Sequence record: LC519489.1
DNA from: Escherichia phage SP22
DNA: 64,000 nucleotides
Reading direction: 5' to 3' (one strand)
Of the stretch, positions 2,160-8,884 are shown in pieces. A program made the position numbers and the translations under genes. The notes under the pieces were generated by a model. It made no database searches. It had not been told where the DNA came from and worked only from the letters and a program-made list of their open reading frames with translations. The number at the start of each line of letters is the position of its first letter. Position 1 is the stretch's first letter.

Positions 2160-2382
2160 GTTCTACATAGAAACGAAATGAGAGCTTTTCTAAGATACTG
2201 AAAAATATTTTAAAAAAGTTCTTGACAACTACTAAAAAATAATGTTAAAGTGGTTACATAGAGTTTGAAAATGACAGTACTGACCGGAACATCGAAAGAT
2301 GGGTACTGCGCCGGGGTTTTACACCCTCCCAGCCTGAGAGCGGGATAACCAAAGGAAAGACCGAATTTATTAAAAAGTTTAT

Positions 2383-2459
2383 CTCTGTTTAGCTCAGCTT
2401 GGTAGAGCGTTCCGTTTGGGGCGGTAAGGCCGGAGGTTCAAGTCCTCCAACAGAGACCA
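2383..2459 (+). tRNA. tRNA-Pro(TGG)
   Basis: Acceptor ctctgtt/aacagag, D-arm AGCTCAGCTTGGTAGAGC, anticodon loop TTTGGGG, T-loop TTCAAGT, CCA encoded. Confidence 0.7.
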
Positions 2460-2466
2460 AATTAAT

Positions 2467-2544
2467 GTTCCAGTAGACAAAATGGTAAAGTCACCACTCT
2501 TTCAAAGTGGATATTTGAGGGTTCAAATCCCTTCTGGAACGCCA
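2467..2544 (+). tRNA. tRNA-Glu(TTC)
   Basis: Acceptor gttccag/ctggaac, anticodon stem ccact/agtgg, loop CTTTCAA, T-loop TTCAAAT, CCA encoded. Confidence 0.7.
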
Positions 2545-2635
2545 GTTTTGACAGAAGACCAATTACAGCAAACTTAATCTTATTCATCTGAAGGTAAATC
2601 GGACAAAGAAGAGATTTGGTTTGGTCATTAAGAAT

Positions 2636-2712
2636 TGCGGGTATAGAGAAAGGGCGTCTCACATGTCTCATTAGCATGGTATCGGCAGGTTCGACTCCTG
2701 CACCCGCCTCCA
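2636..2712 (+). tRNA. tRNA-Met(CAT) type, with U1-C72 mismatch or extra nucleotide before the D-stem
   Basis: Anticodon stem catgt/gcatg, loop CTCATTA, D-stem gaga/tctc, T-arm gcagg-TTCGACT-cctgc, CCA encoded; acceptor register ambiguous. Confidence 0.6.
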
Positions 2713-2789
2713 ATTTTGCAGAAGACCGTATTCAGCAACAAAATACTTTTTGCGGATAAAAGAAAAAACACGGTCTGGCAATGTATTAA

Positions 2790-2866
2790 GGTTAGGAAGC
2801 ACATAAGGTATGTGCGGTCGCCTGTTAAGCGAATGGCACAGGGTTCGAATCCCTGACTAACCGCCA
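2790..2866 (+). tRNA. tRNA-Asn(GTT)
   Basis: Acceptor ggttagg/actaacc, anticodon loop CTGTTAA, T-arm caggg-TTCGAAT-ccctg, CCA encoded. Confidence 0.7.
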
Positions 2867-2935
2867 AATTTAGGAGAGAAGCGATTGCTCACCGATTTGT
2901 AAGGTGCAAGTCCTTAGCCTGAATAGAAATTAAAT

Positions 2936-3023
2936 GTGTCGTTATCCCGTAGATGGTAGCGGTGGGGACTGTAAATCCCTTGTCATTGAGACTCGGTAGG
3001 TTCGACTCCTACACGGCACACCA
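2936..3023 (+). tRNA. tRNA-Tyr(GTA), type II (long variable arm)
   Basis: Acceptor gtgtcgt/acggcac, anticodon stem gggga/tccct, loop CTGTAAA, about 15-nt variable arm, T-loop TTCGACT, CCA encoded. Confidence 0.65.
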
Positions 3024-3029
3024 AATAAA

Positions 3030-3106
3030 GGTTATGTAGTTTAACTGGTTAAAATACTCCCCTGTCACGGGAGATGATGAGGGTTCAAATCCCTTCGTAA
3101 CCGCCA
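3030..3106 (+). tRNA. tRNA-Asp(GTC)
   Basis: Acceptor ggttatg/cgtaacc, D-stem gttt/aaat, anticodon stem ctccc/gggag, loop CTGTCAC, T-loop TTCAAAT, CCA encoded. Confidence 0.75.
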
Positions 3107-3318
3107 AATTATAATAAGTATTTCAAAATGATGTTTTGAGAGGGCTATTTAGCCCCTCCCTTAAAGAGTTCTTACGAGTATTCTTTAAAGGAGCAGAAGA
3201 CCAAATTCAGCAAGTACGTATGAAATTTTCAAGCCAATTTAATTTTGAAAAAATTTAAAACTTGGTCTGGCTCAACAAATTTACAGAAGACCGTTTACAG
3301 CAAACTTTAAACAATCTA

Positions 3319-3392
3319 TTTCTCCGGTAAAGAAAAGGCGAAGGTTCGATTCCTTCACTCGGCAGATGTCGAGTTGGTGTAATGGTAGCACT
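3319..3392 (+). tRNA. Circularly permuted tRNA-Thr(GGT)-like locus: 3' portion (anticodon arm, T-arm, acceptor 3' strand; 3319-3364) lies upstream of 5' portion (acceptor 5' strand, D-arm; 3368-3392)
   Basis: Anticodon arm tttct-CCGGTAA-agaaa, T-arm gaagg-TTCGATT-ccttc, 3' strand actcggc, linker, 5' strand gtcgagt (7/7 pairs incl. one G-U), D-arm gtgt-AATGGTA-gcac; no partner halves in the conventional order nearby. Confidence 0.35.
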
Positions 3393-3564
3393 TAAGATGA
3401 TAAACAACGGTCTGGTAATTATCTTTGTAGATAAGTTATTAAGCTTACCTGTGAGTATGCGACCACAAAGGGTGAAATGGTAAATTCTAGATTTAAACCC
3501 AACAATGCACATCGCTACAGACCTTAAGCAAGTCTGGGTAGCTTATCTACAAAGATAATTTAAT

Positions 3565-3640
3565 GGAAGTGTAGCAGAATGGTGATGCGGCAGACTTTTA
3601 ATCTGACAGGCGATGGGTTCGAATCCCTCCACTTCTACCA
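3565..3640 (+). tRNA. tRNA-Lys(TTT)
   Basis: Acceptor ggaagtg/cacttct, anticodon loop CTTTTAA, T-loop TTCGAAT, CCA encoded; T-stem has a bulge (gatggg/ccctc), shared with the Lys(CTT) paralogue. Confidence 0.65.
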
Positions 3641-3644
3641 ATAT

Positions 3645-3721
3645 GGTTCAGTCGCAGATAAGGTAATGCAGGGGTTTCATAAGCCCTATGAATGTGGGTT
3701 CGATTCCCATCTGAACCTCCA
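3645..3721 (+). tRNA. tRNA-Met(CAT) type (elongator Met or Ile2 not distinguishable)
   Basis: Acceptor ggttcag/ctgaacc, anticodon stem ggggt/gccct, loop TTCATAA, T-arm gtggg-TTCGATT-cccat, CCA encoded. Confidence 0.7.
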
Positions 3722-3722
3722 A

Positions 3723-3798
3723 GCTGGTATAGTTAAGAAGGTTATAACACTCCCCTGATAAGGGAACATCGGTGGTTCGATTCCACCTACCAGTACCA
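3723..3798 (+). tRNA. tRNA-Ile(GAT)
   Basis: Acceptor gctggta/taccagt, D-stem gtta/taac, anticodon loop CTGATAA, T-arm ggtgg-TTCGATT-ccacc, CCA encoded. Confidence 0.75.
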
Positions 3799-3813
3799 AT
3801 TTCAATAAAGTTG

Positions 3814-3842
3814 TTGACATTGAGATGTGACTACTTTATAGT
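3814..3842 (+). promoter_or_regulatory. Sigma70-like promoter TTGACA-N17-TATAGT inside the tRNA array
   Basis: Hexamers and spacing read directly; followed by about 290 nt with no tRNA or ORF. Confidence 0.5.
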
Positions 3843-4136
3843 AACTGAAAATGATTCAGCATATGTATAATTCAAACACCAATACATGAGCGTTAGACGT
3901 AACACAATGTGGGGAAATTTGTTGTACATATTCTGAATAGTTTTCGTTGCGTAGCGTCTATTTTGCAAATTTAAAATAAATGCAAACGACAATGTTTTTC
4001 TGGCAGTAGCTTGATAGGCTAAACACCAGTGAGGTCTTCCAATCCCTCATCAAAGAATTTGGCGTACTCGCCCACGGTATGATTAATAAGGTGGGCATCT
4101 TTAAGGGCTTTCTAAGAGAGTCTTTAAAGATAATTA

Positions 4137-4218
4137 CGGGGCGTATCTCAGCGGTCTTCTAAACCGCCGTTAACCGAGTAAGTGGAGTATGCGGGTTCGA
4201 GTCCTGCCGCCTCGACCA
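4137..4218 (+). tRNA. Atypical tRNA-like gene, anticodon TCT (Arg), no recognisable D-arm and a 23-nt extra region; possible pseudo-tRNA
   Basis: Acceptor cggggcg/cgcctcg, perfect hairpin gcggt-CTTCTAA-accgc, T-arm gcggg-TTCGAGT-cctgc, CCA encoded; only 7 nt between acceptor and anticodon stem. Confidence 0.35.
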
Positions 4219-4232
4219 ATTTTGGAGAAATC

Positions 4233-4580
4233 ATGAAAACTTGTATTAGGTGCAAACTTAGCAAGGATGAAAATGATTTCTACATGAAAGATGGTAAGAG
4301 AACTCATTCATACTGTAAAAAGTGTGTTAATGAGCAAACCATAGAAAGACAAAGAGCACTTAAACTTTCAGCTATTGAGTACAAAGGTGGGGTTTGTCAT
4401 GATTGTGGTAAAAGGTATCATCCAGCAGTGTATGACTTCCATCATTTGAATCCTTCAGAGAAAGATTTTAACATTGGTCATAGAAAAAGTCTGAAGTTCT
4501 CTCAAGAACTAAAAGATGAACTTGACAAATGTGTTTTGCTATGTTCAAATTGCCATAGGGTAAGACATGCAAAGTATTAG
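4233..4580 (+). CDS. HNH homing endonuclease
   Basis: HNH motifs (YDFHHLNPSEKDFNIGH ... LLCSNCHRVRH); start placed at ATG after GGAG; upstream extension in the ORF track overlaps the tRNA-like gene. Confidence 0.7.
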   Translation: MKTCIRCKLSKDENDFYMKDGKRTHSYCKKCVNEQTIERQRALKLSAIEYKGGVCHDCGKRYHPAVYDFHHLNPSEKDFNIGHRKSLKFSQELKDELDKCVLLCSNCHRVRHAKY

Positions 4581-4717
4581 TTAGCAGATTGCTTAGACGA
4601 CCTTATCGGGTCTCCGTGTAAGGAGGTGGTCTGTATCTCATGTTTTCCAGAACATGTAAATAATCTGAGAAGGGGCTTTACAGTGTTGCGAAAATACGGT
4701 AAGCTTCGAATTACAAT

Positions 4718-4800
4718 ATGGGACGATGTTAAGACTCTAAGGCATGAGCAACGGCCTCCAAAACCGTTTCAAAGGGGTTCAACTCCTCCGTCCCATGCCA
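4718..4800 (+). tRNA. tRNA-Trp(CCA)-like with a 7-nt insertion between acceptor and D-arm
   Basis: Acceptor atgggac/gtcccat (7/7), D-arm ctc-TAAGGCAT-gag, anticodon loop CTCCAAA, T-loop TTCAACT, CCA encoded; would complete the 20-amino-acid set. Confidence 0.45.
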
Positions 4801-4813
4801 AAGTCTTATTAGG

Positions 4814-4901
4814 GGTAGGTAGCGGCTAATGGCAGCCAAACAGTCTTGAAAACTGTTGCCACTGTAGAGATACGGTGAGGGTTCGACTCCTTTACTTACC
4901 G
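4814..4901 (+). tRNA. tRNA-Ser(TGA), type II
   Basis: Acceptor ggtaggt/acttacc, D-arm ggc-TAATGGCA-gcc, anticodon stem acagt/actgt, loop CTTGAAA, long variable arm, T-loop TTCGACT; CCA not encoded. Confidence 0.65.
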
Positions 4902-5057
4902 CCTAATAAGATTTATACCGTCCATGCTTGCTCGCATTTTCGGTTTATCCTCGTGTATTGGTTGTACACACTGATAAAGCACCTAGTAGGTGTCACGGAG
5001 AAGAGATAATATCAAGCTCTCCAAAGGTTCTAGTCACCGGATTAAACAAGACTATGC

Positions 5058-5079
5058 AAAGACCAAATTAGGTCTTTTT
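5058..5079 (+). terminator. Weak rho-independent terminator-like hairpin (AAAGACC/GGTCTTT + T-run)
   Basis: Inverted repeat and T-tract read directly; AT-rich stem. Confidence 0.3.
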
Positions 5080-5171
5080 AGAGGGCTTCTAAGGTTATTA
5101 CAGCTTGTTGTGGAACCTTGTTGCTTAGGTTCTTAGAAGTTCTCTAAAAAGATTTAATGGGAGATTGACAC

Positions 5172-5624
5172 ATGGCACGTAGCAGTTTGACTAAAGATAT
5201 TCTTGAACCTTTAGTAAAGGATTCAGTATCATTCAGAGAAGTACTTATTAAGCTTGGGAGAAAACCAGCAGGTGGTTCTCAGTCACATCTAAAGCGTGTT
5301 ATAGAGAAGTTTGAAATAGACACTTCTCATTTCCTCGGACAAAAGGCTGGTAAGGTTAAAACTGTACCAAAAAGAAAGCCTGAAGAAATACTAATTCTGC
5401 GTGAATCTGGTGAAAGAGCTAGGTCTTCACAACTAAGAAGAGCTTTAATAGCCTCTGGTGTCGAATACAAATGCTCTAAATGTGGTCAGTTACCGTATTG
5501 GTTGGGTAACCCTCTAACTCTTGATGTTGACCACATTAACGAGAACTGGTTAGATGATAGAAAAGAGAATCTTCGGTTCTTGTGTCCAAATTGCCACAGT
5601 CAATTCTCAAGACATTTGATTTAA
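5172..5624 (+). CDS. HNH homing endonuclease
   Basis: HNH motif LDVDHINENWLDDRKENLRFLCPNCH; GGGAG RBS upstream. Confidence 0.7.
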   Translation: MARSSLTKDILEPLVKDSVSFREVLIKLGRKPAGGSQSHLKRVIEKFEIDTSHFLGQKAGKVKTVPKRKPEEILILRESGERARSSQLRRALIASGVEYKCSKCGQLPYWLGNPLTLDVDHINENWLDDRKENLRFLCPNCHSQFSRHLI

Positions 5625-5625
5625 T

Positions 5626-5702
5626 GCACCTATAGCCCAACTGGTAGAGGCAGCAGACTTAGAATCTGCTCAGTGTGAGTTCGAATCTCTCTAGGTGTAC
5701 CA
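5626..5702 (+). tRNA. tRNA-Leu(TAG) by anticodon, type I length (short variable arm)
   Basis: Acceptor gcaccta/taggtgt, anticodon stem gcaga/tctgc, loop CTTAGAA, 5-nt variable region, T-loop TTCGAAT, CCA encoded. Confidence 0.6.
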
Positions 5703-5709
5703 AATTAAT

Positions 5710-5785
5710 GCAGGTGTAGCAAAATGGTTATGCGGCTGACTCTTAATCAGTAAGACGATGGGTTCAATTCCCTCCACCTGTACCA
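5710..5785 (+). tRNA. tRNA-Lys(CTT)
   Basis: Acceptor gcaggtg/cacctgt, anticodon stem ctga/tcag, loop CTCTTAA, T-loop TTCAATT, CCA encoded. Confidence 0.65.
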
Positions 5786-5791
5786 AACATT

Positions 5792-5867
5792 GGGGATGTA
5801 GTTTACATGGTTAAAACATAAGTTTTGCAAACTTAAGTACAGGGTTCAATTCCCTGCTTCTCCACCA
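5792..5867 (+). tRNA. tRNA-Ala(TGC)
   Basis: G3-U70 wobble pair present (Ala identity element), D-stem gttt/aaac, anticodon stem taagt/actta, loop TTTGCAA, T-arm caggg-TTCAATT-ccctg, CCA encoded. Confidence 0.75.
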
Positions 5868-5873
5868 ATTAGT

Positions 5874-5948
5874 GCATCCATAGTTTAAACGGGAAAATTA
5901 CAGTCTTCCAAACTGAGGTTGAGGGTTCGATTCCCTCTGGATGCTCCA
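5874..5948 (+). tRNA. tRNA-Gly(TCC)
   Basis: Acceptor gcatcca/tggatgc, anticodon loop CTTCCAA, T-arm gaggg-TTCGATT-ccctc, CCA encoded. Confidence 0.75.
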
Positions 5949-5962
5949 AATTAAGGTGTGAT

Positions 5963-6376
5963 ATGAAAATATGTAGTACTTGCAGAATACCAAAAGATGA
6001 AAGCTTATTCCATAAGAATAAGAACAAGAAAGATGGTCTTCAAAGTCAATGCAAAGACTGTGCAAGACTTCGTGATGCAAAGAGTTATCAAGCAAATGAT
6101 AAAAGGAAAGAGGCTATCAAAAGCACTCGTAACTTCAAGAGGGAGTATAATAAAACTCTAGCTAGAAGGTACAAAGCTTTATGCAAATGTCATATATGTG
6201 GTGAGAAAGAACCAGCTGCACTGGATTTACACCATACAGACCCTTCCCAGAAAGATTTGAATCCTGCATCACTTTATTCATACTCCACAAAAAGATTAAA
6301 AGATGAAATCAGAAAGTGTATCGTCTTGTGTGCTAACTGTCACAGAAAAGTACACGCTGGTATCATACAAGTTTAA
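5963..6376 (+). CDS. HNH homing endonuclease
   Basis: HNH motifs LDLHHTDPSQKDLNPA ... VLCANCHRKVH; Cys-rich N-terminus. Confidence 0.7.
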   Translation: MKICSTCRIPKDESLFHKNKNKKDGLQSQCKDCARLRDAKSYQANDKRKEAIKSTRNFKREYNKTLARRYKALCKCHICGEKEPAALDLHHTDPSQKDLNPASLYSYSTKRLKDEIRKCIVLCANCHRKVHAGIIQV

Positions 6377-6377
6377 T

Positions 6378-6454
6378 GCTGCTTTCGTATAATTGGCTAT
6401 TACACATCCCTTGTAAGGATGGAAATGCAGGTTCGAGTCCTGTGAGCAGCACCA
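6378..6454 (+). tRNA. tRNA-Thr(TGT)
   Basis: Acceptor gctgctt/gagcagc, anticodon stem catcc/ggatg, loop CTTGTAA, T-arm gcagg-TTCGAGT-cctgt, CCA encoded. Confidence 0.75.
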
Positions 6455-6550
6455 ATTTAGAGGTCAAGTGAAAGACCGCTTTGAGTCAACTGAAGACCGT
6501 AACAAATCCCACGGAGTTGAGTTAGCGGCACAACTTCAGACCTCTTTCAT

Positions 6551-6625
6551 ACTCGCTTAGTTTATATGGTAAAACATCACCCTTACAAGATGAAGAAAAA
6601 GGTTCAAGTCCTTTAGTGAGTACCA
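6551..6625 (+). tRNA. tRNA-Val(TAC)
   Basis: Acceptor actcgct/agtgagt, D-arm gttt-ATATGGTA-aaac, anticodon loop CTTACAA, T-arm aaagg-TTCAAGT-ccttt, CCA encoded. Confidence 0.7.
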
Positions 6626-6626
6626 T

Positions 6627-6704
6627 GTTCCAGTATCCCAATTGGCAGAGGATGCAAGCTCAAACCTTGTACTAGTGACGGTTCGAATCCGTCTTGGAAC
6701 ACCA
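6627..6704 (+). tRNA. tRNA-Leu(CAA) by anticodon, short variable arm
   Basis: Acceptor gttccag/ttggaac, anticodon stem gcaag/cttgt, loop CTCAAAC, 6-nt variable region, T-arm gacgg-TTCGAAT-ccgtc, CCA encoded. Confidence 0.6.
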
Positions 6705-6709
6705 ATTTT

Positions 6710-6785
6710 GCAGGATTAGTTCAAATGGATAGAGCAACAGTCTACGAAGCTGTTAATAGGGGTTCGAATCCCTTATCCTGCGCCA
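6710..6785 (+). tRNA. tRNA-Arg(ACG)
   Basis: Acceptor gcaggat/atcctgc, D-arm gttc-AAATGGATA-gagc, anticodon loop CTACGAA, T-loop TTCGAAT, CCA encoded. Confidence 0.75.
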
Positions 6786-6804
6786 ATTTAAAGAGGCTAT
6801 TTAG

Positions 6805-7362
6805 ATGAGATATTTGAAGTATGCTTCATGGATTTTCTTAGCTTTGTTAGAACCATTTGCAGCAATCTTAGCAGTTATCTTAGCACCTTTCGTAGTCCCA
6901 TTCTACAGTGAGAAGAAAGGACACTTACCTTTCGGCTTCAGATGGATGGAGACATATGACAACCCAATTGATGGTGATAAAGGGCATGTCGAACGATGGG
7001 CTAAGATTAGAAAGATTGGCAAGCTTGGTGTCTATATGCAGAGAGTCGGTTGGCTCTGGAGAAACAAAGCTTATAACTTCTCTTACCATGTGTTAGGAAG
7101 AGATGTAAAAGATGTTACTAAGTGGAAAGGCAATATCAACGTAAGTTCTAACCCTGAAGATAATCAGACAGGTTATCTCCTAATGTGGAACAGCAATGCT
7201 TGGGGATTATTCGCTTTTATCCCATCAATTAAAGTCTTTGGTAAACAATTTTACTGGAGAATTTATATTGGGTGGAAGCTAAAAAGTGTTGTCCCAGAAG
7301 AAAGAGCATTCTCAAGGGAAAGAGTTATGTTGGCATTCTTTATTCATCCACTAAGAAAGTAA
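6805..7362 (+). CDS. Hypothetical membrane protein (N-terminal hydrophobic segment, Trp-rich)
   Basis: ORF track; AGAGG RBS upstream; no motif recognised. Confidence 0.5.
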   Translation: MRYLKYASWIFLALLEPFAAILAVILAPFVVPFYSEKKGHLPFGFRWMETYDNPIDGDKGHVERWAKIRKIGKLGVYMQRVGWLWRNKAYNFSYHVLGRDVKDVTKWKGNINVSSNPEDNQTGYLLMWNSNAWGLFAFIPSIKVFGKQFYWRIYIGWKLKSVVPEERAFSRERVMLAFFIHPLRK

Positions 7363-7370
7363 AGATTTAA

Positions 7371-7446
7371 AGGGGATTAGTTTACAAGGTTAAAACCTCG
7401 GTCTTTGAAATCGAAGAAGTTGGTTCAATTCCAACATCCCCCGCCA
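7371..7446 (+). tRNA. tRNA-Gln(TTG)
   Basis: Acceptor aggggat/atccccc with unpaired A1-C72 (weak 1-72 pair is typical of tRNA-Gln), anticodon loop CTTTGAA, T-arm gttgg-TTCAATT-ccaac, CCA encoded. Confidence 0.7.
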
Positions 7447-7448
7447 AT

Positions 7449-7527
7449 GCTCCATTACTCCAATTGGCAGAGAGGCCAGACTTAAAATCTGTGTTATGTA
7501 TCGGTTCGAATCCGATATGGAGTACCA
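7449..7527 (+). tRNA. tRNA-Leu(TAA) by anticodon, short variable arm
   Basis: Acceptor gctccat/atggagt, anticodon stem caga/tctg, loop CTTAAAA, about 8-nt variable region, T-arm atcgg-TTCGAAT-ccgat, CCA encoded. Confidence 0.6.
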
Positions 7528-7532
7528 AATTT

Positions 7533-7608
7533 AGCGGTATAGCATAACTGGCAATGCAGCAGTCTCTGAAGCTGTCTTATTAAGGTTCAAATCCTTATGC
7601 CGCTGCCA
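7533..7608 (+). tRNA. tRNA-Gln(CTG)
   Basis: Acceptor agcggta/tgccgct (A1-U72), anticodon loop CTCTGAA, T-arm taagg-TTCAAAT-cctta, CCA encoded. Confidence 0.7.
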
Positions 7609-7639
7609 CTTCTAAGGGTTCTTACGAGAGTCCTTAAAT

Positions 7640-7715
7640 GTGGCCTTATCATAAATGGTAATGACCCATGCTGTGAACATGGTCTATACGGGTTCAAATC
7701 CCGTAGGTCACCCCA
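7640..7715 (+). tRNA. tRNA-His(GTG)
   Basis: Acceptor gtggcct/aggtcac, D-arm tcat-AAATGGTA-atga, anticodon stem ccatg/catgg, loop CTGTGAA, T-arm acggg-TTCAAAT-cccgt, CCA encoded; no G at -1. Confidence 0.75.
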
Positions 7716-7720
7716 ATTTA

Positions 7721-7797
7721 TAGTCCAAGTAGCTTATATGGTTAAAGCGCGTGTCTGAAAAACATGAGAAGAGGGTTCAAATCCCACTGGACTACCA
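7721..7797 (+). tRNA. tRNA-Phe(GAA)
   Basis: Acceptor tagtcca/tggacta, D-arm gctt-ATATGGTTA-aagc, anticodon stem cgtgt/acatg, loop CTGAAAA, T-loop TTCAAAT; two extra nt at the acceptor/D junction. Confidence 0.65.
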
Positions 7798-7813
7798 ATT
7801 TCAAAGGTGCTTA

Positions 7814-8548
7814 ATGAAAGAGATGACAGAACAAGGTAAGGAGATTTTTAATCTCTTAAAAACCGGTAAAGGGTTTTCTAATCCCCTTATTACTGGTGCA
7901 GCAGTTCTCGGTGGAACCGTAGCTGCCTCTACATCACTTGTAAGCTCTATTAGCTCTGTAACAGACCCTACAATAAAAGATAAGCTTGTTGCTGCTGGAC
8001 TTACAACAGTCCTGCTTAACAGCTTTACAACGAGTCTGACAAGCACTACATCAACTACCAAAACACTGACAGATTACGGTCAAAAATCTATTGATGAGTT
8101 TTCATCACGTATGCAGGTAGCAAAAGGCTATTCTAATGTTATGGGTGCAGCAGGAGAGCAGGTTGGTTGTACACCATTTAGTGGTATTATGGGTGTTGCT
8201 ACAGAGTATGGTCAAAAAGCTATTGACACGATTAACAGTGCACTAGATGGTGTTAATGATGTATTAAGTGACTTACAAGATGCTATTGACAAAGGTCTTG
8301 ATACTATTTCTGATTTAGCTAACCAAGCTGTTAGTAAGATTAATGAAGGTATTTCGAAGATTACAGCTTATGCAGATGAAGTTGTGCAGATGATTGAAGA
8401 AGAAGCTGCTCTTATTGCAGAGTACCTTAAAACGAATATCAATGGGTTCTTAGCAGGTATCTTACCAGACTGGTTTGATGATGCTTGTAAAACTGGTGTA
8501 ATTGATACTATTGCAACACCAGAAATGAAGAACGCATTACAGAAATAA
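7814..8548 (+). CDS. Hypothetical protein (Ser/Thr-rich N-terminal region)
   Basis: ORF track entry 7751-8548 overlaps tRNA-Phe; start moved to ATG after AAGGTG. Confidence 0.5.
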   Translation: MKEMTEQGKEIFNLLKTGKGFSNPLITGAAVLGGTVAASTSLVSSISSVTDPTIKDKLVAAGLTTVLLNSFTTSLTSTTSTTKTLTDYGQKSIDEFSSRMQVAKGYSNVMGAAGEQVGCTPFSGIMGVATEYGQKAIDTINSALDGVNDVLSDLQDAIDKGLDTISDLANQAVSKINEGISKITAYADEVVQMIEEEAALIAEYLKTNINGFLAGILPDWFDDACKTGVIDTIATPEMKNALQK

Positions 8549-8549
8549 T

Positions 8550-8642
8550 GGAAGATTAACCCTAAAAGGTAAGGGAGCAGTTTGCTAAACTGCCAGTAGC
8601 TGAGAAATCGGTGTACCAGTTCAAGTCTGGTATCTTCCTCCA
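8550..8642 (+). tRNA. tRNA-Ser(GCT), type II
   Basis: Acceptor ggaagat/atcttcc, D-stem ccc/ggg, anticodon stem gcagt/actgc, loop TTGCTAA, long variable arm, T-arm accag-TTCAAGT-ctggt, CCA encoded. Confidence 0.7.
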
Positions 8643-8646
8643 ATTT

Positions 8647-8722
8647 GAATCCGTGACAGAAATGGTTATGTGCCTGTCTGCAAAACAGGTTTATAAGGGT
8701 TCGAGTCCCTTCGGATTCTCCA
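8647..8722 (+). tRNA. tRNA-Cys(GCA)
   Basis: Acceptor gaatccg/cggattc, anticodon stem cctgt/acagg, loop CTGCAAA, T-arm aaggg-TTCGAGT-ccctt, CCA encoded. Confidence 0.75.
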
Positions 8723-8884
8723 AGTTATTTTACTCTCTCTCAATTAAAATAATAATAATGCCCTGCTATAAGTATTCTTCCTTTCGCTACCGAAGAGTAT
8801 TTTTAGACAGGGCTTTTTTACAGAGTTATACTTTATAAGAAGACTTATACAGTATGTCTCTGACGTACATTGTGGTTTCTCCTT

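Follow-up and report, generated by a model that had tools for sequence, protein, structure and literature searches.

Three leucine tRNA genes in the phage array

Escherichia phage SP22 carries an array of tRNA genes that was analysed within a stretch of 64,000 nucleotides (nt) from sequence record LC519489.1 (hereafter the window; Table 1). The subject of this work is the set of three genes in that array with leucine anticodons, tRNA-Leu(UAG), -Leu(CAA) and -Leu(UAA). In a preliminary description based on hand folding, all three were said to lack the long variable arm of class II tRNAs that is normal for bacterial tRNA-Leu, and this is borne out by the cloverleaves obtained both with ARAGORN and with the Rfam tRNA model (RF00005). 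The variable loop in the ARAGORN cloverleaves is TCAGT (5 nt) in Leu(UAG), ACTAGT (6 nt) in Leu(CAA) and GTTATGT (7 nt) in Leu(UAA). The lengths of 77-79 nt given earlier therefore stand, while the variable regions, which had been put at 5-8 nt, measure 5-7 nt. A class II variable arm, of at least 11 nt with a helix of 3-5 base pairs (bp), is found in none of the three, which are referred to here as type I. Long arms are present in the tRNA-Ser and tRNA-Tyr genes of the same array, as had also been described.

Table 1. Features of the tRNA array and its surroundings, in window coordinates (V, length of the variable region).
Feature	Position	Strand	Remarks
Phage tRNA array	2383-8722	+	25 tRNAs by ARAGORN; holds the three Leu genes, with HNH endonuclease open reading frames (ORFs) in between
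Type I tRNA-Leu(UAG)	5626-5702	+	77 nt including CCA; ARAGORN; Rfam 57.3 bits
Type I tRNA-Leu(CAA)	6627-6704	+	78 nt including CCA; ARAGORN; Rfam 43.6 bits
Type I tRNA-Leu(UAA)	7449-7527	+	79 nt including CCA; ARAGORN; Rfam 47.5 bits
Comparator tRNA-Tyr(GUA), class II	2936-3023	+	88 nt, V = 15 nt
Comparator tRNA-Ser(UGA), class II	4814-4903	+	90 nt, V = 20 nt
Comparator tRNA-Ser(GCU), class II	8550-8642	+	93 nt, V = 21 nt
tRNA-Glu(UUC)	2467-2544	+	Leu-like D arm: 3-bp stem, 11-nt loop AAAATGGTAAA
ORF of 471 amino acids	697-2112	+	just upstream of the array
Motif CAGAAGACC-N5-CAGCAA	2552-2571	+	exact copy
Motif CAGAAGACC-N5-CAGCAA	2719-2738	+	exact copy
Motif CAGAAGACC-N5-CAGCAA	3194-3213	+	exact copy
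Motif CAGAAGACC-N5-CAGCAA	3284-3303	+	exact copy
tRNA-like fragment	3300-3364	+	sub-threshold, 24.7 bits
tmRNA-like matches	3847-4218		weak, sub-threshold; cover the aberrant tRNA-like gene
Aberrant tRNA-like gene	4137-4215	+	Rfam tRNA 31.7 bits; without an ARAGORN call
Small ORF	4233-4580	+	weak, sub-threshold HNH endonuclease match; directly 3' of the aberrant tRNA-like gene
Small ORF	5172-5624	+	weak, sub-threshold HNH endonuclease match
Small ORF	5963-6376	+	weak, sub-threshold HNH endonuclease match

With Rfam, all three Leu genes score above the gathering threshold of 29 bits and form a full cloverleaf over model positions 1-71. The anticodon loops are of 7 nt with U33 (CTTAGAA in Leu(UAG), CTCAAAC in Leu(CAA) and CTTAAAA in Leu(UAA)) and are the same by both methods, in agreement with the hand folds; since the two programs agree independently, a mis-assignment of these loops, which had been named as a possible source of error, is ruled out. 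In each gene CCA is encoded at the 3' end and is directly preceded by A73. Base pair 3:70 is A-U in Leu(UAG) and U-A in both Leu(CAA) and Leu(UAA), so in no case G-U. Leu(UAG) and Leu(UAA) have a G1-U72 pair at the end of the acceptor stem, and the uppermost position of the anticodon stem in Leu(UAA) is mismatched (C27/U43). A signature confined to the loops (a Leu-type D loop, T33-N-A-R-R, a variable region of 4-8 nt, the T loop and A73CCA, with the stems left unconstrained) found its matches within the window in precisely these three genes, against an expectation of 0.00 from shuffled sequences.

Leucine identity

The means by which E. coli leucyl-tRNA synthetase (LeuRS) recognises its substrates have been reviewed by Giege and Eriani (PMC9976931). 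A73 is crucial for leucine identity. Also essential are A14, the A15-U48 Levitt pair, G18G19 and A20a; neither the anticodon nor the long variable arm is needed, and tRNA-Leu truncated of its anticodon and variable arms is still a substrate. The full set of these elements, together with a 3-bp D stem and an 11-nt D loop, is present in all three phage genes, U48 being the final base of the variable loop and A20a the A that follows Y20. The D arms read GCC-CAACTGGTAGA-GGC in Leu(UAG), TCC-CAATTGGCAGA-GGA in Leu(CAA) and CTC-CAATTGGCAGA-GAG in Leu(UAA). When the 25 tRNAs of the window were set beside those of the 20 isotypes of E. coli K-12, including all five Leu isoacceptors, the combination of a 3-bp D stem with the 11-nt loop N-AAYYGGYAGA was confined to Leu tRNAs.

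Identity was also assessed with a covariance model built, with the anticodon masked, from 26 canonical class II Leu tRNAs (the five of E. coli, that of phage T5 and those incidentally present in the loci retrieved), which was run without filters over positions 2300-8800. Among the 26 window tRNAs ranked, Leu(UAG) came first (57.6 bits), Leu(UAA) third (51.8) and Leu(CAA) fourth (50.1); apart from a tRNA-Glu that is considered with the charging question below, the remaining tRNAs scored at most 47.6 bits, with tRNA-Tyr at 36.8 and the two tRNA-Ser at 35.6 and 27.9. Isotype scores from tRNAscan-SE 2.0 have been published for the near-identical orthologous tRNAs of the Moogle-like phage Sf14 (Sf14 study, 2025). 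The anticodon loops of Leu(UAG) and Leu(CAA) are identical in Sf14 and the window, and that of Leu(UAA) differs at position 32. For each of the three the Leu model was the best, Leu_TAG scoring 67.4 (next Ile2, 65.7), Leu_CAA 49.1 (next Lys, 36.1) and Leu_TAA 60.2 (next Lys, 54.2). The disagreement between isotype and anticodon that covariance scoring had been expected to reveal if identity were altered is thus not seen. That study classed the three Leu tRNAs as isotype-consistent and never mentions the variable arm. Whole-tRNA identity with the variable region removed, measured against the 20 E. coli isotypes and the phage tRNAs, gave no discrimination and was dropped; by this measure Leu(CAA) and Leu(UAA) were mutual best matches and Leu(UAG) was nearest to phage tRNA-Lys. 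In tRNA-Glu(UUC) a Leu-like D arm was observed (Table 1), and its Sf14 orthologue is isotype-inconsistent by tRNAscan-SE (Sf14 study, 2025).

It had been proposed that the three tRNAs might be charged with a different amino acid, and the same architecture could be taken to mean that UUA, UUG or CUA is recoded. We consider this very improbable indeed. It draws on the unusual architecture only, and on the precedent that odd phage tRNAs exist, 14 of the 26 Sf14 tRNAs being inconsistent between isotype and anticodon; the inconsistency does not extend to the three Leu tRNAs. The leucine identity elements are complete, there is no G3:U70 pair of the kind associated with alanine and no long arm as required by seryl-tRNA synthetase (SerRS), and the NAG/YAA anticodons fit no anticodon-reading synthetase outside the leucine system. 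Nor do the anticodons UAG, CAA and UAA, which read CUA, UUG and UUA, include one for a stop codon, as a suppressor tRNA would have. Mis-charging is therefore rejected, and apart from the arm the three genes are Leu-like.

Type I leucine tRNAs in phages and bacteria

A 2.5-kb stretch of the window matches 255 phage records, mostly at 95-98% identity and all from Felix O1-like myoviruses of Salmonella, E. coli, Shigella and Citrobacter, and by its sequence the window is assigned to Felixounavirus. The Leu genes are annotated as tRNA-Leu in Felix O1, Moogle and many other relatives (more than 200), having been listed for Felix O1 through tRNAscan-SE (Felix O1 genome paper, 2010). In the Ounavirinae, sampled across three genera whose hosts are Salmonella, E. 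coli, Citrobacter, Erwinia and Hafnia, every Leu tRNA was type I. Leu(CAA) and Leu(UAA) of Kolesnikvirus (Erwinia, Hafnia) have acceptor, anticodon and T stems entirely unlike those of their Felixounavirus counterparts; the anticodons are the same, both forms are type I, and the D arms are identical (Leu(CAA)) or near-identical (Leu(UAA)).

The type I form has a core of its own, for which a signature was derived in this analysis. A9, C12-G23, C13 and U48 are found in all three window genes and, across the family, in 73-79%, 72-87%, 84-94% and 100% of members respectively; A73 formed part of the survey pattern, so that its family frequency is not independent. The core of class II tRNA-Leu consists instead of G9 (98%), G12-C23 (98%), a purine at position 13 (G or A, 98%) and U48 (about 98%), and the window genes do not show its G9, G12-C23 and purine 13. 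The variable loop is 5 nt long in about 90% of the family and 6-7 nt in 14 of 144 viral members, and the D arm has a 3-bp stem and the 11-nt loop N-A14-A15-Y-Y-G18-G19-Y-A20a-G-A. In sequences chosen by their loops, 97.7-98.5% of 20 cloverleaf pairs were formed as against 47-51% when the 3' partners were slid by one position, and 3-6 pair types occurred at most stem positions. Type I tRNA-Leu is thus a real, covarying tRNA family, and the three genes of the window are real, conserved and constrained to the cloverleaf.

The loop-only signature matched at least 120 viral contigs in IMG/VR. Among the matches listed, all those confirmed by ARAGORN are tRNA-Leu of 76-79 nt, with the anticodons TAG (41), CAA (39), TAA (37), GAG (6), CAG (5) and AAG (3) and no case of Phe(GAA), which the signature permits. 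In the viral loci listed, 180 of 200 Leu tRNAs are short, whereas 85 of 86 Ser and 39 of 39 Tyr tRNAs are long, a pattern that matches the window. At least 120 contigs of bacterial genomes were also matched, in two settings. The first is a single chromosomal 77-nt tRNA-Leu(CAA) or tRNA-Leu(UAA), mostly in Actinomycetota (Mycobacterium, Rhodococcus, Corynebacterium, Amycolatopsis, Micromonospora), and the second is a dense tRNA array (for example in Microcoleus, Moorena and Acidobacteria). Arrays of 12-31 tRNAs within 8 kb or less that include type I Leu were observed in Microcoleus, Moorena, Terracidiphilus, Blastocatellia and others (loci L147, L151, L158, L167, L188, L211 and L226), and mobile tRNA arrays, like phages, seem to be vehicles of armless Leu. 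The median GC content of loci with type I Leu is 42% in the viral set and 66% in the genome set, and the former value indicates that the viral loci are mostly not those of actinophages.

A blastn search gave homologues of type I Leu in 470 records of cultured phages, which include the three Ounavirinae genera, Certrevirus of Cronobacter and Enterobacter, Otagovirus of Pseudomonas, phages of Aeromonas and Enterococcus, about 78 Mycobacterium phages and 37 Streptomyces phages. By annotation tables and folds these tRNAs are 74-80 nt long, with long Ser and Tyr tRNAs alongside, and they occur in such gammaproteobacterial phages as Cronobacter CR9, Pseudomonas phiPsa315 and Erwinia phiEa21-4.

An unselected survey, in which the variable region was allowed to range over 4-34 nt in a single scan, gave a measure of abundance; its pattern demands the Leu D-loop consensus and an encoded ACCA, and related contigs in it are not independent. 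Among the viral matches listed the variable region was bimodal, with 4-6 nt in 30 and at least 11 nt in 102 (23% type I), and among the metagenome matches listed one tRNA was type I and 120 were class II (0.8%). The difference, 30/132 against 1/121 of the matches listed, has a Fisher p of 1e-8 and an odds ratio of 35. The sampled class II Leu tRNAs had variable regions of 11-21 nt. The premise that bacterial tRNA-Leu is normally class II is upheld by the metagenome figure. The short arm is not peculiar to this array, as the preliminary description might suggest, but belongs to a widespread and already described form.

That description comes from Streptomyces coelicolor (Fan, Huang, Ji and Wang, 2019, NAR 47:6369; PMC6614811), where a type I tRNA-Leu(CAA) has the 5-nt loop ACAGC. 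A single Streptomyces LeuRS charges type I as well as type II, 5 nt is the minimal loop for relatively high aminoacylation, and the tRNA appears to be essential, attempts at its deletion having failed. In the same paper almost all bacterial tRNA-Leu is stated to be type II. The MenT3 paper reports that in M. tuberculosis only tRNA-Leu-2, -3 and -5 are long-looped, in agreement with our genome matches. The actinobacterial tRNAs resemble those of the window in being bacterial-type Leu tRNAs with a 5-nt loop, a Leu D arm and A73 that stand beside class II Ser and Tyr; the loop TCAGT of the window Leu(UAG) conforms to N-C-A-G-U, the cellular consensus, and a single position separates the T arm of this tRNA, GTGAG-TTCGAAT-CTCTC, from that of mycobacterial Leu(CAA), GTGAG-TTCGAAT-CTCAC. 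They differ in that all three Leu isoacceptors of the window are type I and phage-encoded whereas the host clade's own Leu tRNAs are all class II, in having U48 where S. coelicolor has C48, and in that two of the window loops are of 6 and 7 nt.

With class II tRNA-Leu (E. coli leuQPV, leuT, leuU, leuW, leuX and leuZ, and that of phage T5) the window genes share the sequence and size of the D loop, A14, A15, G18G19, A20a, U48, A73 and the anticodon sets. They lack the variable-arm helix, A9, C12-G23 and C13 replace G9, G12-C23 and G/A13, and A37 replaces G37 in the CUN reader. The animal mitochondrial tRNA-Leu(UUR) and tRNA-Leu(CUN) are alike in having a short variable loop and an identity set by A73 and A14 (PMC9976931), but their D and T loops are degenerate and their LeuRS is a dedicated one, whereas the elbows of the phage tRNAs are fully canonical (G18G19, TTCGAAT).

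The array itself varies among relatives. At the Leu(UAG) position, two type I alleles unrelated to each other occur among Felixounavirus phages: that of Felix O1 (locus L351, 3928-4005) begins GGGAGAT and has G9 and the loop TGTTT, and that of the window and Moogle begins GCACCTA and has A9 and the loop TCAGT. This implies that the tRNA gene was replaced in an array that is otherwise syntenic. Where Moogle has a canonical 77-nt tRNA-Arg(TCT), the window has a tRNA-like gene of aberrant structure. Its anticodon loop (CTTCTAA) is that of Arg(UCU), its acceptor stem is of 7 bp and its anticodon and T arms are normal, but only 7 nt take the place of the D arm and the variable region is of 22 nt. 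The small HNH-like ORFs among the tRNA genes (Table 1) are arranged as in T5 and Felix O1, and their variable presence across relatives is consistent with mobile homing genes. In spacers of the first part of the array the motif CAGAAGACC-N5-CAGCAA occurs in four exact copies (0.16 expected by chance); it may be a signal for processing, an element resembling a promoter or a site for an endonuclease. A spacer there also holds the tRNA-like fragment of Table 1 and T-arm-like sequence, and the fragment may be a decayed tRNA gene. The 471-residue protein encoded upstream of the array matches Pfam DUF2828 and DUF7788 and is annotated in relatives as 'RNA-binding protein'; it may have a part in the handling of tRNA or other RNA.

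Decoding, charging and the absence of the arm

The window has a GC content of 39.3%. In its ORFs the leucine codons TTA, CTT, CTG, TTG, CTA and CTC account for 27.5%, 27.0%, 15.3%, 13.1%, 11.3% and 5.8% respectively, against 17.7%, 16.1%, 42.4%, 13.2%, 4.9% and 5.7% in 14 E. coli genes. Since UUA and CUA are over-used relative to the host, the phage tRNAs with anticodons UAA, CAA and UAG would serve over-used codons. The Sf14 study (2025) likewise found TTA and CTA to be commoner in the phage than in its host, and the Felix O1 genome paper made the same point of codon supply for Leu[TTA], which it placed among the tRNAs likely to aid translation. The phage-specific decoding that had been proposed is supported as ordinary codon supplementation and not beyond that.

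The explanation that best accounts for these observations, and one that we regard as likely, is that the three genes encode functional type I Leu tRNAs that are charged by the host LeuRS and supplement the decoding of leucine codons. The re-fitted core A9, C12-G23 and C13 accompanies a variable loop of about 5 nt. A LeuRS of the E. coli type reads A73, A14, A15-U48 and the elbow with G18G19 and A20a, and the enterobacterial host LeuRS is expected to leucylate the three tRNAs because it reads elements that they possess and neither the anticodon nor the long arm. Once charged, the tRNA with UAA would decode UUA and UUG, that with CAA would decode UUG, and that with UAG would decode CUA and CUG and perhaps CUU. 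The capacity to decode UUA, UUG and CUA would probably be raised late in infection, as a supplement to a host tRNA pool tuned to CUG in a phage that, at 39% GC, prefers UUA, CUU and CUA.

Several points weigh against this explanation. The literature searched shows no charging of these phage tRNAs, and E. coli LeuRS gave no leucylation of a transcript of the Streptomyces type I tRNA-Leu(CAA), the enzyme being described in that work as charging type II only (Fan et al., 2019; PMC6614811). This negative result conflicts with the mutagenesis and minimal-substrate work summarised in PMC9976931, and we speculate that C48 in the Streptomyces tRNA, as opposed to U48 in the phage tRNAs, may explain the failure of the E. 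coli enzyme. In our covariance-model ranking second place, with 53.6 bits, was taken by the phage tRNA-Glu(UUC), and because this tRNA also scores high the test is supportive of leucine identity but not exclusive. Leu(UAG) has A37 in place of the G37 (1-methylguanosine, m1G37) of E. coli CUN-reading tRNA-Leu, Leu(CAA) has C38 in place of A38, and host modification of these two anticodon loops may differ. Finally, codon supplementation leaves the absence of the arm unexplained. In the wider family, position 37 of type I tRNAs with NAG anticodons is A in 61% of viral and 80% of genome members, as compared with G37 in 72% of class II; judged by this base, many armless CUN readers, including Leu(UAG) of the window, would lack m1G37.

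If enterobacterial LeuRS did charge these tRNAs poorly, they could be weakly functional relics of horizontal transfer, or act as decoys or as punctuation for the processing of a tRNA operon. The inactivity of the E. coli enzyme on the Streptomyces tRNA speaks for such a view, as does the turnover seen in the differing Leu(UAG) alleles of Felix O1 and the window. In addition, no close copy of the three Leu tRNAs was found by blastn in 5,426 complete E. coli genomes, a search of limited sensitivity (77-nt queries against 28 Gb). Yet E. coli LeuRS charges armless substrates (PMC9976931), and type I Leu is carried by the other gammaproteobacterial phages named above. Furthermore, the anticodons, D arm, U48 and A73 are kept between Kolesnikvirus and Felixounavirus although the stems are fully rewritten, which argues for selection for a working tRNA in Enterobacterales hosts. 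Overall, poor charging appears quite improbable. Phage T5 was considered as a precedent for charging and rejected, since its only tRNA-Leu, the 85-nt tRNA-Leu1(UAG), is class II. The GenBank record of T5 mentions amber-suppressor tests made by anticodon swap for its tRNAs.

As to why the arm is absent, it may be a neutral inheritance of an old alternative Leu architecture, a result of streamlining, or an escape from proteins that recognise the arm. Phage tRNAs can serve in the evasion of host defences: the tRNA-Lys of T5 evades PARIS and its tRNA-Tyr evades retron Eco7 PtuAB. Anticodon-loop variants of mycobacteriophages have been presented as defence escape (van den Berg, 2023, as cited in the Sf14 study). 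The type I tRNAs resemble such cases in being phage isoacceptors that are structurally unlike the host tRNA and must still be charged. They differ from them in that those are changes to the anticodon stem-loop with demonstrated resistance, while here a whole arm is lost and no target defence is known.

An adaptive loss, by which the tRNAs would escape proteins whose recognition of class II tRNAs depends on the arm while charging by LeuRS is kept, would add an ultimate cause to codon supplementation by host-charged tRNAs and would not replace it. Candidate targets of such escape are nucleotidyltransferase toxins of the AbiEii/MenT type (in abortive infection and toxin-antitoxin systems) and nucleases that attack host tRNA-Leu during infection. 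The roughly 30-fold enrichment of type I Leu in viruses among the matches listed is consistent with this, as are the retention of long arms by the Ser and Tyr tRNAs of the same loci and the occurrence of type I Leu in dense tRNA arrays of bacterial genomes; the enrichment could also reflect descent, genome streamlining or sampling, and in Actinomycetota type I Leu is a normal chromosomal tRNA. Leucine is the class II system in which charging tolerates loss of the arm, whereas Ser tRNAs cannot lose it because SerRS requires it. The AbiEii preprint gives a class II tRNA-Leu as the target of MenT1 and describes an apparent preference of AbiEii for class II tRNAs, but MenT3 prefers Ser over Leu (MenT3 paper), and for the infection of Salmonella or E. 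coli by Felix O1-type phages no such toxin acting on tRNA-Leu is known. Escape from an anticodon nuclease was judged unlikely for the phage-host pair of the Sf14 study. Taken together, we think adaptive escape unlikely. If it were true, the viral enrichment would be explained by leucine being the only class II system that keeps its aminoacylation when the arm is lost. It would also follow that enterobacterial LeuRS must charge a natural type I Leu tRNA, contrary to the sole published cross-species test.

For the window alone the finding is an ordinary one, because its genes are already in public annotation, and the type I structural class has itself been described in Streptomyces. In the literature searched on phage and Felix O1 tRNA-Leu and the variable arm, no paper was found that describes armless phage Leu tRNAs. 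For annotation pipelines and studies of codon adaptation, these genes can be treated as ordinary Leu decoders, and tRNA engineering could find a use for compact Leu tRNAs whose charging in E. coli is expected. For the family the consequences are broader. Phages form a large exception, and one apparently unremarked, to the textbook statement that tRNA-Leu in bacteria is class II: about a quarter of the sampled viral Leu tRNAs are armless and have a distinct conserved core. The type I phage tRNAs form a natural test set for LeuRS recognition, in particular for the charging of type I substrates by LeuRS of the E. coli type, on which the published evidence conflicts. They also raise the hypothesis that phages have dropped the arm of tRNA-Leu to avoid proteins that target class II tRNAs.

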